Shown: positions 33,420-48,119 of the stretch, one piece after another | How the letters are laid out: the number at the start of each line of letters is the position of its first letter | Position numbering within the stretch: position 1 is the stretch's first letter | Assembly: GCA_964433215.1 (NCBI GenBank) | Contig: CAYSQI010000002.1 | Span: 66,496 to 130,495, forward strand | Direction of reading: 5' to 3' | Length of the DNA: 64,000 nucleotides | Source: an uncultured Bacteroides sp. | Lineage (GTDB): Bacteria > Bacteroidota > Bacteroidia > Bacteroidales > Muribaculaceae | Notes under the pieces: model-generated | Seen by the model: the letters and a program-made list of their open reading frames with translations, nothing else | What the model was told of the DNA's origin: nothing | The model's database searches: none | Translations under genes and position numbers: made by a program

Positions 33420-33449
33420 AGGCTTATTAGAATTATTCGTTTGCAAATT

Positions 33450-33567
33450 TACACTTTTTCGACCGAATAAACAATGCTTCGCTACACTTTTTCGACCGAA
33501 TAATCGGCGTGTTGCTACACTTTTTCAACCGAATAATTGGTGTGCTGCTACACTTTTTCGACCGAAT
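33450..33567. repeat. Four-copy array, period exactly 33 bp (19-bp core TACACTTTTTCGACCGAAT + 14-bp spacer)
   Basis: Cores start at 33450, 33483, 33516 (one G>A change) and 33549; the first overlaps the minus-strand TAAATTTG promoter motif (33444-33451). Confidence 0.95.
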
Positions 33568-43328: not shown

Positions 43329-43532
43329 GTCGCTGGGTTTAAAGTATTTTTTCAGGATTTTCGAAAACGGATGTCAAAATTACTGCAAAAATCCCATTTA
43401 TCAAATATGTACATTCCTTTTTTATGAGGAATTTGTCGTTTTTGGCGAATTATTGATAAAAGTTGATAAAGTTTCGATAAAAAATTTGTGGAATTAGAAA
43501 TCTTTGCGTACCTTTGCAGTCGCTAAACCCAG

Positions 43533-43603
43533 GGTTCCTTGGCCGAGTGGTTAGGCAACGGTCTGCAAAACCGTGCACAGCAGTTCGATTCTGCTAGGAA
43601 CCT
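43533..43603 (+). tRNA. tRNA-Cys (GCA)
   Basis: Acceptor stem GGTTCCT/AGGAACC with U discriminator, D-loop GAGTGG, anticodon arm ACGGT-CTGCAAA-ACCGT, T-loop TTCGATT; CCA not encoded; upstream TACCTTTG promoter motif. Confidence 0.95.
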
Positions 43604-43611
43604 CAACAACG

Positions 43612-43646
43612 AAGCGCATCAGTCATCCGGCCGATGCGCTTTTTTT
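43612..43646 (+). terminator. Intrinsic terminator after tRNA-Cys
   Basis: AAGCGCATC...GATGCGCTT followed by a T run. Confidence 0.85.
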
Positions 43647-43710
43647 GGGTCGGTTGCGTAAAACAGAGGTGCTTCAGGGTCAGCGGATGCGTGAACCCCA
43701 CAGTGGTTGG

Positions 43711-44709
43711 TTATGATTTTATGCTTTCGAGACGCTTCCTTTCTGCTTCGAAGGCTTCGAGGAAGTGAAATTCGACCGGGGATAGCTGGTGTTGGGCGCG
43801 TTCACGGAATTTGTCGTATTCATCATTGGCTTTCAGTTTGGCAACTTCGGCTGACACGCTTCCCGCATGGTTCAATAATTCCTTTCCCGACAGCTTCAAG
43901 AAATCGTCGAGCTTCTGAATCCAGTCTTTCATATACATCGGAATATGACTTTTAGCTTGGAGTTCGGCAAAATCGAGGTATAGATTGACAATACGGTTCA
44001 GCATATCGACTTCCTCTTCCGAAAGGTAGTTCTTGGCAATCTCAGCTTCTTGTTTTGAAGGCATGGCTCCTCGCCACGAAGTTAAACCCATAAAATCTTT
44101 TTCGGCATTGGCTCGATCATAGATTACCTCTGCGGCTGTATGTCCGTGAGCGGCAAAGTGCATCTTGTTCTGAACCGTTTTGAAGAACTGTTGGGTTATG
44201 GATGTGCGAGGGTCATAGTCTATGCTGAGGGCGTATATTTCCAATACCTTGCGGTAGAACACCTTTTCAGAACTGCGTATGTCTCGGATGCGAGCCAACA
44301 ATTCGTCAAAATAATTTCCTTGTCCGGCGTTTTTAAGTAAATCGTCATTGAGAACGAACCCCTTAATCATGTACTCTTTCAGTACCTGAGTGGCCCACTG
44401 ACGGAACTGCACGCCACGATGAGAATTGACACGATACCCCACGCTGATAATCATGTCAAGGTTATAATATGAGACTATATAGGTTTTTCCATCAGAGGCA
44501 GTTGTTGCATTTTCTGCAACAACTGAATTTCGCTGTAATTCACCACTTTTAATTACGTTTTTAATATGTCGTGAAATGGTTGATTTGTCGCGCTGAAACA
44601 ATTCAGCCATCTGGTCAGCCGTGAGCCACACAGTCTCATTAGAGAGCCGAACTTCAATCTTCGTCTCTCCGTCTTGTGTCTTAAATAATATAATCTGTCC
44701 GTTATCCAT
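43711..44709 (-). CDS. RhuM-family (virulence RhuM-like) protein
   Basis: ETVWLTADQMAELF, YYNLDMIISVGYRVNS.RG.QFRQWAT, IRDIRSSEKVFY, VQNKMH.A..G.TAAE. Confidence 0.9.
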   Translation of the reverse strand: MDNGQIILFKTQDGETKIEVRLSNETVWLTADQMAELFQRDKSTISRHIKNVIKSGELQRNSVVAENATTASDGKTYIVSYYNLDMIISVGYRVNSHRGVQFRQWATQVLKEYMIKGFVLNDDLLKNAGQGNYFDELLARIRDIRSSEKVFYRKVLEIYALSIDYDPRTSITQQFFKTVQNKMHFAAHGHTAAEVIYDRANAEKDFMGLTSWRGAMPSKQEAEIAKNYLSEEEVDMLNRIVNLYLDFAELQAKSHIPMYMKDWIQKLDDFLKLSGKELLNHAGSVSAEVAKLKANDEYDKFRERAQHQLSPVEFHFLEAFEAERKRLESIKS

Positions 44710-44778
44710 TTACAAATCGTATAATCTATTATTGTGAGAATCCGACCGTTAATCGTAAATAAATTAAACGTATGAAAG

Positions 44779-44908
44779 AAACTATGTTTTTGAAATCAGT
44801 GTAGCAAAGTTACTGATTATTACACTAATCCCCAAATTTTAATCAGCATAGTCGGTTCACATTTTCATTGGTCGAGAAATATTATTTATCGTAGTATGGA
44901 ATTTTTTT
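44779..44908 (-). repeat. Duplicated promoter/leader block (second copy at 46539-46769)
   Basis: AAACTATGTTTTTGAAA.CAGTGT.GCAAAGTTACTGA...CACTAATCCCCAAATTTTAATCAGCATAGTCGGTTC...GGTCGAGAAAT...GTATGGAATTTTTTT occurs at both sites and includes the TAACTTTG promoter motif. Confidence 0.9.
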
Positions 44909-44938
44909 GCACTTTTTTGAGGCTTTTTTCCTAAAGTC

Positions 44939-45082
44939 AAAGTCGAAACGCAATTAACCCAAGAGGGAAACCGTATCTCAAAGCAGACTATCTACAACTA
45001 CATACATGCCGATACAAGTAGAAAATTACTTGCAAACACCCGACACAAAGGCAAGTATAATCGCAAACATAGAACCAAGTAA
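44939..45082 (+). pseudogene. IS30-family transposase remnant
   Basis: My translation: KVETQLTQEGNRISKQTIYNYIHADTSRKLLANTRHKGKYNRKHRTK*, resembling the IS30 (I/V)S.ETIY.YI..D...L...LRH segment; no start codon, no DDE domain. Confidence 0.6.
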
Positions 45083-45203
45083 ATGTATCAAGACACATCA
45101 GATGCGAGAGCCGGAGAGTAGTAATCGGCGCTTGGTGTGACCGCAATAGCCTGATATGCGCTGATGCCAACTCGAGAGGGTAAAGCCGTTCACCTGAATG
45201 CCC

Positions 45204-46538
45204 TTATCTCAAAAATATGGACATGTATGCCGGTAAGTAAACGATATTCTCATCCTTACGAAGGTCTTTGGTATAAATTAAGTATCGACTGCTAATGCGA
45301 GATGAAAATTTTTCGCAGAAAGCGTCAAGGGATGCGTGAGTCTTGTATCCTGAAGACTTTACCTCAATGGGGATAATCTTTGCTCCATCAGAAAGCAGAA
45401 AATCTATTTCGTATAGATGATTGCTTCTAGGCGAAGGAAATGTGTAATAATAAAGTTCATGTCCGGCAGCCTTCAGCATTTGCGCAATGATATTTTCAAA
45501 AACGTAGCCAAGATCCGCGCTCAATTTATCAGACAACAATTTTTCGTATATGAGATTGTCTGTGAACTTTTTATCCCAAAACGCAAGAGTTACAAACAAC
45601 CCTGTGTCACAGATGAACATTTTGTAACGGTCCGAATCGCGATGAAGTGCCATTCCGACATTTGGGTCATTTGCATGATATGCAAGATTAACAACCATCG
45701 AATCGCTCATATCAAAAATGGTTTCGGCTAATCGAGATTGGCGTCCACCATCAGAGGCCGCTTTAACTGTGTATCGAGAGGCATTTCGTGTTAATTCAGA
45801 CGGAATGGCATGAAACAAACGCGAGGCATTTCCGGACGGATCAATCTTCATAAAGTCATTTTCGTAAAGACGAATAATTTGACGCTTTACAGTATCAACC
45901 TTATTCATGTTATTTGTTTCCAAATATGTGTTTACAGCCTGTGGCATTCCGCCAATGAGCATATACAATCTGAACTGACGCATAAGATTACGATTCGCCT
46001 CATCTCCAAGACTACGTTTGCGATCAAAGAAAAATTTAAGGTTGGGAATAGTCGTTTCATCTCCGGTAGCCCATAGGAATTCTTCGTAATCAAGAGGGTT
46101 AAGGGTTACTTCGTGCTCTTCACTTGGGATAATAATTCCTTTTACATTTTGTCTGATAGACAATAAAGAGCCGGTTTCGATATAATCATATCGGCCATCT
46201 TCAATTAGATATTTTATGGCTTGACGAGCATTCGGACATTTTTGAACTTCATCAAAAACTATAACAGATTTGCGCACATTAAGGTCGCATTTGAATATCA
46301 TTTGCAAGCGCATAAATATGTAGTCAAGGTCGGAAATATCGTCAAAAAGATCACGAACCTCTTTTTTACACTTAGCAAAATCTATAATAATGGCTGATTC
46401 ATACTCCTGTTCAGCAAATAGCTTGGCAATGGTTGACTTACCAACACGTCTCGCGCCTTTTATAAGCAAAGCTGTCGCTCCATTGCTTTCAGACTTCCAT
46501 TGAAGCATTTCTGAATAGATTTTTCTCTTGAATACCAT
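45204..46538 (-). CDS. Second AAA_14 ATPase with DUF4143 / PD-(D/E)XK-like C-terminus
   Basis: Walker A IKGARRVGKST, Walker B VFDEVQ, ETGSLL, C-terminal EIDFLL...PIEVKS. Confidence 0.9.
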   Translation of the reverse strand: MVFKRKIYSEMLQWKSESNGATALLIKGARRVGKSTIAKLFAEQEYESAIIIDFAKCKKEVRDLFDDISDLDYIFMRLQMIFKCDLNVRKSVIVFDEVQKCPNARQAIKYLIEDGRYDYIETGSLLSIRQNVKGIIIPSEEHEVTLNPLDYEEFLWATGDETTIPNLKFFFDRKRSLGDEANRNLMRQFRLYMLIGGMPQAVNTYLETNNMNKVDTVKRQIIRLYENDFMKIDPSGNASRLFHAIPSELTRNASRYTVKAASDGGRQSRLAETIFDMSDSMVVNLAYHANDPNVGMALHRDSDRYKMFICDTGLFVTLAFWDKKFTDNLIYEKLLSDKLSADLGYVFENIIAQMLKAAGHELYYYTFPSPRSNHLYEIDFLLSDGAKIIPIEVKSSGYKTHASLDAFCEKFSSRISSRYLIYTKDLRKDENIVYLPAYMSIFLR

Positions 46539-46581
46539 AAACTATGTTTTTTGAAACCAGTGTGGCAAAGTTACTGAGTAT

Positions 46582-46700
46582 AACGCTGATTTCCAAATTT
46601 ATGATGAGGTTTTTTGGCACTAATCCCCAAATTTATAATATGGTTTTTGGCACTAATCCCCAAATTTTAGATGAGATATCTGGCACTAATCCCCAAATTT
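46582..46700. repeat. Array with 33-bp period (19-bp core GGCACTAATCCCCAAATTT + 14-bp spacer); three exact cores and one degenerate
   Basis: Cores at 46616, 46649, 46682; degenerate AACGCTGATTTCCAAATTT at 46582 next to the minus-strand TAACTTTG promoter motif (46566-46573). Confidence 0.93.
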
Positions 46701-46840
46701 TAATCAGCATAGTCGGTTCGCATTTTTATCGGTCGAGAAATTTTTGCTATCAGTGGTATGGAATTTTTTTAGCGTCGGTTGTTTATATGTTGGTAATTAT
46801 TTTCAACCGTTTTTTTTACGTTGGACTAAAAAAATCAGTA

Positions 46841-47084
46841 AATTTGCGGACGGATCAATTGCCTTCGGCACCGTGCACCGGTCTTCGACCGACGTTCACT
46901 ATTGACCGACACGCTAATTAGAGAATTTGCGGTCGGATCAATTGCCTACGGCACCGTGCACCGGTCTACGACCGACGTTCACTATTGACCGACGCGCTAA
47001 TTAGAGAATTTGCGGACGGATCAATTGCCTACGGCATCGTGCACCGGTCTTCGACCGACGTTCGCTATTGACAGACACGCTAAT
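46841..47084 (+). repeat. Three tandem copies of an 83-bp palindrome-rich unit
   Basis: Units start at 46841, 46924 and 47007; copies 1 and 2 differ at 4 positions; internal hairpins TGCC-T(T/A)C-GGCA and CGGTC-T(T/A)C-GACCG. Confidence 0.97.
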
Positions 47085-47114
47085 AAAATTATTCAGATCT
47101 AAATACAGACGGAA

Positions 47115-48119
47115 ATGATACCACCGATTTATTCACCTGCTGAAAACCGCTATGAAAATGGTATGCACTATCGCCGTAGCGGCCGTAGCGGCATACTTTT
47201 GCCCGAAATTTCGCTCGGGTTGTGGCACAACTTTGGCGACGTAGACTTGCTGTCGAACTCGCTCAAAAAAGCTCACTACGCCTTCGACCATGGCATTACA
47301 CACTTCGATTTAGCCAACAACTATGGCCCCAGCTACGGCTCGGCCGAGGAAACGTTTGGCTTGATTATGGAGAAATCGTTCCGTCCCTATCGCGACGAAT
47401 TGTTCATCTCCACGAAAGCCGGACACGATATGTGGCCCGGCCCCTACGGAGAGTGGGGCTCGCGTAAGTATCTCTTTGCGAGCCTCGAACAGAGTCTGAA
47501 GCGTATGAAACTCGACTATGTCGATATCTTCTATTCGCACCGCTACGACCCCGACACGCCGCTCGAAGAGACGCTGCAGGCTCTTGTCGACATTGTGCGC
47601 CAAGGCAAGGCTCTATATGTAGGCATCTCGAAATATCCTAAGGATGCAGCAGAGTTTGCGTATAAATATCTGGCCGATAGTAAAGTGCCGTGTCTGTTAT
47701 ATCAGGGACGCTATAATATCTTAAATCGCGATCCTGAAGAGGAAGGTATCTTGGCCGGTGCGAAAGCTGCCGGTTCCGGTTTTATAGCTTTCTCGCCGTT
47801 GGCCCAAGGATTGCTCACCGACCGCTATCTCAACGGCATTCCGGCTGACTCGCGTGTGGCTCGCGGCGGTTACTTGAAAAAAGAACAACTCACAGAAGAA
47901 ACGCTCAGCAAGGTTCGTCGACTCGACGAGGTGGCTCGCCGCCGTGGGCAGACGCTGGCCGAAATGGCTCTCGCCTGGCTGCTCAAGGACGACCTCGTCA
48001 CGAGTGTAATTGTCGGCGCCAGCTCTGTCGAGCAAATCGAACGCAACCTCAAGGCTGTCAAAAATACGACTTTCTCAGCCGAGGAGTTGGCTGAAATCGA
48101 CAGCATCAGCAAGTCCTGA
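47115..48119 (+). CDS. Aldo/keto reductase (YghZ/MgrA-like)
   Basis: ISLGLWHNFG, HFDLANNYGP..GSAE, ISTKAG, DYVDIFYSHR, GKALYVGIS, FSPLAQGLLT. Confidence 0.93.
   Translation: MIPPIYSPAENRYENGMHYRRSGRSGILLPEISLGLWHNFGDVDLLSNSLKKAHYAFDHGITHFDLANNYGPSYGSAEETFGLIMEKSFRPYRDELFISTKAGHDMWPGPYGEWGSRKYLFASLEQSLKRMKLDYVDIFYSHRYDPDTPLEETLQALVDIVRQGKALYVGISKYPKDAAEFAYKYLADSKVPCLLYQGRYNILNRDPEEEGILAGAKAAGSGFIAFSPLAQGLLTDRYLNGIPADSRVARGGYLKKEQLTEETLSKVRRLDEVARRRGQTLAEMALAWLLKDDLVTSVIVGASSVEQIERNLKAVKNTTFSAEELAEIDSISKS

Follow-up and report, generated by a model that had tools for sequence, protein, structure and literature searches.

An important question raised by the DNA analysed here is whether two short repeat arrays merely lie in front of two related genes or are functionally coupled to them. 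The stretch of 64,000 nucleotides (the window; contig CAYSQI010000002.1 of assembly GCA_964433215.1, positions 66,496 to 130,495) comes from an uncultured Bacteroides sp. of the Muribaculaceae and contains two genes, here called ATPase 1 and ATPase 2, whose products combine an AAA_14 ATPase domain with a DUF4143 domain. The original prediction, made on first reading of the window, was that each of these genes is directly preceded by four 33-bp units consisting of a 19-bp core and a 14-bp spacer, that the two proteins recognize their own arrays, and that this is a candidate for a previously undescribed system. Our data show that the arrays are real, under selection and a hallmark of this protein family in at least seven bacterial phyla, and that a promoter is embedded in one of the repeat units. 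With regard to function, we cautiously favour the idea that the arrays are iteron-like operators, which would be bound cooperatively by the adjacent AAA+/winged-helix/nuclease protein and, by containing the promoter of its gene, would bring about negative autoregulation.

Two phased arrays in front of two ATPase genes

Tandem Repeats Finder (TRF) detects only two arrays with a 33-bp period in the entire window and these directly precede the two AAA_14+DUF4143 genes (table 1), which, together with the positions of the single copies, bears out the first claim of the original prediction. In array 1, TACACTTTTTCGACCGAAT occurs four times (plus-strand cores at 33450–33468, 33483–33501, 33516–33534 and 33549–33567, with 0, 0, 1 and 0 mismatches) at a spacing of exactly 33 bp, with a chance expectation of 0.04 matches in the window (TRF: period 33, 3.6 copies, score 153). 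Array 2 contains three exact copies of GGCACTAATCCCCAAATTT (46616–46634, 46649–46667 and 46682–46700) and a degenerate copy at 46582–46600 with 13/19 matches and a 34-bp offset (TRF: period 33, score 144), i.e. the expected number of four units holds for array 1, whereas array 2 has three perfect units and one degenerate unit. The core of array 2 is kept in relatives at 78–97% protein identity.

In both cases the promoter reaches into the array. The promoter-proximal core of array 1 (ending in …GAAAAAGTGTA in gene orientation) shares 2 nt with the −7 box TAAATTTG, and the resulting core/−7 overlap GTGTAAnTTTG recurs in relatives. In array 2, a gap of 20 nt separates the −7 box TAACTTTG from the TTTG of the degenerate unit on its upstream side, so that this TTTG takes the place of a Bacteroidetes −33 element.

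The two proteins are only 30% identical, but share the same domain pair (Pfam PF13173 and PF13635; COG1373), with both domains in the expected order and above the gathering score (84.2/100.6 bits for ATPase 1 and 78.8/56.7 bits for ATPase 2 versus cut-offs of 27/28.1; E values for AAA_14/DUF4143 of 1e-28/1e-23 and 5e-22/3e-15, respectively). The profile hidden Markov models of the PADLOC candidate defence system PDC-S01 are matched over their full length (residues 1–446 and 1–442; E values in table 1). The layout of ATPase 1 consists of an AAA+ ATPase, a winged-helix-like middle part and a PD-(D/E)XK end. The Walker A (GxxGxGK[ST]), Walker B (hhhhDE) and PD-(D/E)XK (D..E.K) motifs are all present in both subfamilies, with G33 and K34 (Walker A), D96 and E97 (Walker B) as well as D379, E392 and K394 (nuclease) being invariant across both.

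Table 1. Genes, arrays and promoter elements of the window (positions counted from its first nucleotide).
Feature	Positions	Strand	Basis or remark
ATPase 1, AAA_14 + DUF4143, 463 aa	32028..33419	-	Pfam; PADLOC PDC-S01, E 1e-154
ATPase 1 -7 box TAAATTTG	33444..33451	-	read from sequence
Array 1, four 33-bp units	33450..33567	-	core in gene orientation ATTCGGTCGAAAAAGTGTA
RhuM-family gene, PADLOC PDC-S05	43711..44709	-	Pfam, E 5e-113; PADLOC
Second copy of the ATPase 2 promoter region, preceding RhuM, 122 bp	44787..44908	-	85-90% identity to 46548-46770
ATPase 2, AAA_14 + DUF4143, 444 aa	45204..46538	-	Pfam; PADLOC PDC-S01, E 2e-99
ATPase 2 promoter, -7 box TAACTTTG (46566-46573) and -33 TTTG (46594-46597)	46566..46597	-	read from sequence
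Array 2, degenerate proximal unit and three exact units	46582..46700	-	core in gene orientation AAATTTGGGGATTAGTGCC

Linkage of array and gene across bacterial phyla

The arrays are not a peculiarity of the window. For ATPase 2, scanning one genome per species yielded 80 loci (loci and related contigs are designated by L numbers below) with relatives 48–75% identical to this protein, which come from Bacteroidales, Clostridia, Treponema, Fibrobacter and Succinatimonas, i.e. from at least 5 phyla. When 260 bp upstream of the start codon were searched for the lag with the best self-match (range 15–60), this lag was exactly 33 in 70 of 76 ATPase-2-type upstream regions (both window genes counted). 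A strong signal at 32/33 bp was found in 60/76 upstream regions of the ATPase genes versus 7/185 upstream regions of other open reading frames (ORFs) in these loci (Fisher p 7e-36), and even these seven positive controls comprise five divergent neighbours that share the ATPase array and one further paralogue, with only one being unrelated. TRF found 44 arrays with a period of 32–34 in the upstream DNA (18 kb) versus 3 in the remaining 404 kb of the loci; two of the latter stand before further AAA_14+DUF4143 paralogues and the third is a second array in front of the same gene. At L064 (2100–2220), a second, ‘orphan’ 33-bp array with 3.7 copies, 97% identical units, a different core and no gene of its own precedes the array that belongs to the ATPase by approximately 80 bp and may be the remnant of a replaced paralogue.

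The same picture emerged for ATPase 1, for which a metagenome scan provided 63 distinct upstream regions. The best lag was 33 in 46 and 32 in 14 of these (60/63), as opposed to 2/69 downstream controls, and 60/63 distinct ATPase 1 relatives have the core type and period of array 1. Among ten distant members of the family (22–30% identity) taken from plasmids, those of Collinsella and Vescimonas have 33-bp arrays and those of Fusobacterium, Ruminococcus albus, Vibrio, two Acinetobacter, Criblamydia and Segatella copri have 32-bp arrays, with a copy on a 98-kb plasmid of B. fragilis, which has two sites 66 bp apart, as the only one that deviates. In the summary count, 8/10 of these distant members have arrays of 32–33 bp. 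Archaeal members, which make up a quarter of the family, were not matched in our searches of the plasmid collection. Overall, arrays comprise 2–5 copies (most commonly 3) and the core-to-core distance is exactly 33 bp in 122/143 successive pairs. Thus, the predicted enrichment of 33-bp periodicity upstream of this family is amply borne out in both subfamilies, and the combination of a conserved geometry with a diverged core holds across about 150 loci.

Which part of a unit is conserved becomes visible when all arrays are set in a common register, in which the family consensus begins AAATTTTGnGGA. Identity between the units of an array amounts to 0.90–0.99 at unit positions 3–14 and drops to 0.65–0.70 at positions 24–29, a profile that reproduces the division into a 19-bp core and a 14-bp spacer. 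Distinct core types characterize distinct clades, i.e. TTGAAGAAATGCAC a Lachnospiraceae/spirochaete clade, GGTGGATAtTGACA, CGGGGTCAGAGTG and GAGAATTTCGGCA separate Bacteroidales clades and TGCGATTTTG a Clostridial clade. With protein distance increasing from 0–0.1 over 0.1–0.2 and 0.2–0.3 to 0.3–0.4, core identity between loci declines from 0.89 over 0.76 and 0.68 to 0.50, while spacer identity runs at 0.71, 0.51, 0.54 and 0.44. Core types follow the protein tree, as the predicted co-phylogeny implied (Mantel r 0.45, a value reached in 0/2000 permutations), and where paralogues coexist in one genome, their cores always differ (in the window as well as at L035, L054 and L080). There is also a common denominator, however. 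The half-site GrAAAAGTGTa recurs across subfamilies (array 1 of the window, Collinsella, Vescimonas, Acinetobacter and Vibrio) and forms a palindrome in Acinetobacter and Vibrio, and in the common register both cores of the window fit the family-wide pattern GrrAwwwnGTGy. These two cores are therefore homologous rather than unrelated, and the initial statement that they share only CACT underestimated their relationship.

As 33 bp equal 11 codons, the repeats could in principle encode an 11-residue N-terminal repeat, or else represent a small RNA or a mini-CRISPR. That the period is a multiple of three and that gene callers often extend the ORF 20–30 aa into the array (473 versus 444 aa) would go along with a coding function. 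In the window, however, in-frame stops and the promoter separate the array from the start codon, many family members have a period of 32, and there is no Rfam match. Moreover, a CRISPR array should have unrelated spacers of about 30 nt or more, whereas the spacers here are 14 nt long and homologous between units, with no cas genes among the ORFs of the window. We consider all of these readings extremely improbable and have rejected them. Many database proteins (P0002, P0009–P0065 and similar ones) are in fact 20–30 residues too long, starting inside the array upstream of the promoter, and these N-terminal extensions are gene-calling artefacts.

Embedded promoters and a putative negative feedback

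In ATPase-2-type loci of the Bacteroidales, the −7 box TAnnTTTG begins at unit position 27–29 in 36/49 last units and in 0/87 inner units, a phase which makes the TTTG of the last core the −33 element; a series of tandem promoters, which would feature in-phase −7 boxes in the inner units, was rejected on the same count. In arrays of the ATPase 1 type, the last core and the −7 box overlap at the 3′ end of the core. In Clostridial arrays of the TGCGATTTTG type, including those of the cultured species Ruminococcus flavefaciens and Eubacterium ruminantium, the first unit has its core between the two hexamers of TTGACA-N16-17-TATAAT and the other units are located between the start site and the ribosome-binding site, while in TTGAAG-type arrays (Lachnospiraceae) the −35 hexamer TTGAAG is part of the core. 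As read from these promoter motifs, one core constantly overlaps the region bound by the polymerase in all lineages, whereas the array as a whole takes different positions with respect to the promoter. Such constancy would fit repression by occlusion or a roadblock, but fits activation poorly. Among the functions originally envisaged, i.e. autoregulation, oligomer loading or a guard-like sensor, it is thus autoregulation that has gained specific support, with a promoter inside one unit in every lineage.

Could the arrays just be promoter architecture (phased A-tracts, UP-like elements, curved DNA or remnants of tandem promoters) or sites for host factors, which are not read by the adjacent protein at all? 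The units do begin with A/T tracts, and their consensus AAATTTTG resembles Bacteroidetes −33/−7 motifs, just as TTGAAG resembles a −35 element. Yet the arrays track the gene across phyla despite differing promoter types and relative positions, the inner units are devoid of −7 boxes, paralogues in the same cell differ in their cores, and the best-conserved positions within an array are the clade-specific ones and not the A-tract. Only 1 of about 179 independent control promoters features such an array. We regard this explanation as very unlikely.

In the model that we favour, the 2–5 units of an array would act as iteron-like operators for the product of the gene that directly follows them. This protein would combine an AAA+ ATPase of the initiator clade (ORC/DnaA-like) with a winged-helix-like module for reading DNA and would end in a PD-(D/E)XK nuclease. 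Each core of approximately 19 bp would be read by a single protomer or, in subfamilies whose cores are palindromic, by a dimer. With the 32–33 bp core spacing corresponding to three helical turns, neighbouring protomers would be placed on one face of the DNA, where they could contact each other and therefore bind cooperatively, and since one of the units contains the promoter, occupancy would block RNA polymerase. The outcome would be a steep negative autoregulation of a potentially toxic and horizontally mobile nuclease gene and, as each paralogue has its own core, there should be no cross-talk between paralogues.

Structural predictions bear on this assignment. With an AlphaFold2 model of ATPase 2 (mean predicted local distance difference test score, pLDDT, of 80) as the query, the best Foldseek match in the PDB is the Orc1–DNA complex of Aeropyrum pernix (2v1u, E 2.5e-5), with a global template-modelling (TM) score of 0.26–0.29 that is low because the protein has several domains; clamp-loader subunits, MalT, MuB, Avs4, TnsC and DnaA come next. 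A sequence search of the PDB gave no match. Residues 261–280 of ATPase 2 are among the two most variable stretches in the subfamily, with a mean pairwise identity of 0.29 as compared with 0.65 in the ATPase core. Within this stretch, the model predicts a helix (residues 266–279) followed by a beta-hairpin, and the aligned segment of a paralogue, NLGRVLEVNRTTVADMLAYIERAGLLR, has a classical helix-turn-helix-wing pattern with weak matches to MarR (E 0.098) and HTH_27 (E 0.15). In terms of this model, the helix of residues 266–279 is likely to be the recognition helix. In an alignment of 76 relatives (residues 255–285 of ATPase 2), three separate clades (L040/42/80, L005/13 and L015) stand out, in which a K-x-D-R at the start of this helix is found together with cores ending in …TTTCGGCA, a pairing that hints at a readable specificity code.

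A second potential target of ATPase 2 was overlooked on first reading. The 122-bp segment upstream of the RhuM-family gene, which is a duplicate of the ATPase 2 promoter, contains a single core, TACACTAATCCCCAAATTT, at 44821–44839 (a fifth copy of the core of array 2, with 17/19 matches), a −7 box at 44805–44812 with the same 20-nt geometry as for ATPase 2, and approximately 70 bp of the array-distal flank. This arrangement is also present in a related contig (L084, with a 97% identical ATPase) and in L085. The intact core in the −33 position of this promoter copy suggests a two-gene regulon, in which ATPase 2 would repress not only its own gene but probably, via this single core, the neighbouring RhuM gene as well.

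Several points weigh against this model. A minority of genes, i.e. those at L003, L030, L042 and L073, the second paralogue at L079 and the copy on the B. fragilis plasmid, have no clear array. In the Bacteroidales, the promoter has most units on its upstream side, which would be an equally suitable arrangement for activation. The putative DNA-binding module is deduced from a structural model with a low TM score to Orc1, and a model of a fragment has a pLDDT of 38. Furthermore, core type tracks protein clade, as would be expected from the protein–site co-evolution originally proposed, but this cannot be separated from co-inheritance of the gene with the adjacent DNA; because both are inherited together, co-divergence is expected from linkage alone and is in itself no proof of co-evolution. 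Finally, the ATPase and nuclease sites, which a plain repressor would not need, are intact, which implies that autoregulation is not the whole function of the protein.

A different idea, in line with the oligomer loading and guard-like sensor originally envisaged, is that the protein does bind the array, but that the array chiefly serves as a sensor or assembly platform, on which an oligomer is parked or primed on self DNA to be released, activated or up-regulated when a phage perturbs DNA or titrates the protein (which would include positive autoregulation). Besides the intact motifs, this could account for the family being a defence candidate embedded in restriction-modification (RM), BREX or DISARM loci, and phased multi-site arrays with 2–4 units upstream of the promoter, as in the Bacteroidales, would suit the nucleation of an oligomer as in the case of ORC or DnaA. 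The sequence data as such do not distinguish between such a platform and plain autorepression. Clostridial units, however, are mostly found downstream of the start site, which is a misfit for activation, and one PDC-S01 representative gave no protection against T4, T5 and T7 in E. coli B, where a PDC-S05 did protect (bioRxiv 10.1101/2024.09.26.614923). We consider a platform as the chief role of the array unlikely.

Mobility and genomic setting

Yet another possible role of the arrays would be that of cis sites at which the ATPase-nuclease acts on DNA (as an iteron origin, in site-specific cleavage or recombination, or in homing or transposition), with gene and array together forming a selfish mobile unit. 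Both genes of the window reside in low-GC patches (35–44%) within a genome of 53–64% GC, and ATPase 1 on its own makes up a one-gene island of 37–41% GC (as compared with 53–60% for the genome). Near-identical genes occur across different phyla and contexts, COG1373 is among the horizontally shared genes of gut bacteria (PMC10782964), there are many copies per genome (PMC13356809), and the combination of iterons with an initiator-like AAA+ protein that has an intact nuclease site recalls origins. On the other hand, there is no second or inverted core beyond the gene and, apart from the duplicate in the RhuM promoter, no extra core copy flanking the genes, either in the window or in the 76 loci. 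A transposon or insertion sequence with two ends, for which terminal and usually inverted copies of the binding site would be expected, was therefore rejected. The junctions between module and variable context are located approximately 330 bp upstream of the start codon and not at the array, and strains that share the protein do not differ in their arrays. Several origins active on one chromosome would be detrimental, and a promoter locked into one unit would be left unexplained. In view of these points, a primary function in such DNA transactions appears quite improbable. Variation in copy number as a means of phase variation (a contingency locus) was rejected as well, because all contigs that share a protein also share its exact array.

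In L087–L096 and L107–L112, identical ATPase-plus-array modules stand beside varied upstream neighbours (an integrase with HTH_17, an ArdC-type protein, CreD and others). All junctions in L087–L096 fall at …TTACTTGCCGATGCAATT…, approximately 330 bp upstream of the ATPase start, which looks like an integration hot spot adjoining the module. Downstream neighbours of such modules include Prok-E2/ThiF/JAB genes, and L114 has an AbiEii gene upstream and a methyltransferase gene downstream.

In the window, the low-GC patch of ATPase 2 (approximately 43400–47100) also holds the RhuM-family gene and an IS30-like transposase fragment, and is bordered by a tRNA-Cys(GCA) gene (43533–43604, plus strand); this is the layout of a typical tRNA-adjacent genomic islet. 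The transposase fragment, a C-terminal part (…QTIYNYIHADTSRKLLANTRHKGKYNRKHRTK*) at 44930–45090 on the plus strand, is located between the RhuM gene and ATPase 2 and is also present in L084. Between array 2 and an aldo-keto reductase gene (47115–48119), there is a tandem repeat of 83 bp (2.9 copies, 93% identical, 46841–47084), which is single-copy in the examined stretch of the closely related contig L084. In a search for empty sites, exact look-ups of the acyltransferase flanking ATPase 1 retrieved only contigs that carry ATPase 1, and those of the aldo-keto reductase gave no match. No RNA run was found to contain the window locus.

Relation to known systems

How much of this is new? The protein family as such is already on record as the PADLOC candidate PDC-S01, so that ‘undescribed system’ can only refer to the array, for which we found no description in the literature on DUF4143, COG1373, AAA_14, PDC-S01 or 33-bp repeats, although our coverage of this literature is incomplete and the result is absence of evidence. 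PADLOC put forward its PDC systems on the principle of ‘guilt by embedding’, as such genes are found within BREX, DISARM and type I RM loci, and released them as untested candidates. In later surveys, PDC-S01 ranked fourth among the defence-type loci of prokaryotes (approximately 29,500 instances in bacteria and 10,000 in archaea) and was the single locus counted most often in rumen genomes. A census of PD-(D/E)XK proteins lists DUF4143/COG1373 as ‘unknown’. Our proteins resemble PDC-S01 in their end-to-end match, in having the same domain pair and in residing in small islands near other defence genes (RhuM/PDC-S05 in the window; AbiE, a methyltransferase and Prok-E2/ThiF/JAB in relatives). 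The difference is that PDC-S01 is defined by the protein alone.

The phased cis-element provides a first concrete molecular handle on PDC-S01, i.e. a predicted DNA ligand for each protein, along with a simple reporter assay and a natural panel of matched protein/site pairs for studying specificity. It also means that heterologous tests of PDC-S01 might mislead if the native upstream region is omitted or misread, and that ORFs extended into an array should be treated as annotation artefacts. Should oligomers indeed assemble on phased iterons, a nuclease-bearing branch would be added to ORC/DnaA-style DNA recognition. A more far-reaching and at present rather doubtful extension would be that PDC-S01 comprises pan-bacterial, sequence-specific ORC/DnaA-like AAA+ nucleases, which form ATP-dependent oligomers on promoter iterons phased at 32–33 bp. 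The array would then also serve as the resting platform of an immune sensor, from which the nuclease would be released, or by which it would be induced, once DNA invades or phage factors interfere with the complex; in the window, this would also de-repress RhuM, and pairs of recognition helix and core would constitute a programmable specificity code.

A precedent for operators of this kind is found in iteron-regulated plasmid initiators such as RepA of P1, RepA of pSC101 or the pi protein of R6K, where tandem direct repeats of approximately 19–22 bp stand beside the gene for the protein that binds them. A promoter inside these repeats leads to autorepression, specificity diverges between replicons, and the iterons flank an origin (with an AT-rich unwinding element and a DnaA box). 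What the arrays described here have in common with plasmid iterons is that tandem direct repeats overlap the promoter of the gene for the putative binding protein. However, Rep proteins consist of winged helices only (WH1–WH2) and lack AAA+ or nuclease domains, whereas the proteins of the window combine AAA+ with PD-(D/E)XK; the period of iterons is about 22 bp as compared with 32–33 bp here; and the ATPase genes are chromosomal, with several copies per genome and no sign of an origin beside them.

A similar combination of an initiator-clade AAA+ domain with a (winged) helix-turn-helix and repeated sites, to which our structural model tentatively points, is known from archaeal Orc1/Cdc6 with its origin recognition box elements and from DnaA with its DnaA boxes, and dnaA is also autoregulated through such boxes. 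In contrast to these initiators, the ATPases studied here have an additional PD-(D/E)XK domain (and a global TM score of only 0.26–0.29), their sites are direct repeats with a fixed 33-bp period and without an unwinding element, and their genes are non-essential, mobile and present as multiple paralogues. In restriction-modification systems controlled by C proteins, a separate small helix-turn-helix controller acts at paired inverted C-boxes. The likeness lies in a mobile nuclease gene that is restrained through operators within its promoter and in specificity classes that prevent cross-talk, but in the model proposed here it would be the nuclease-bearing protein itself that binds to 2–5 direct repeats. 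Overall, autoregulation through an iteron array that an initiator-like protein reads is a known principle, whereas its occurrence in this protein family, the 32–33-bp phasing and the fusion to a nuclease would be new.

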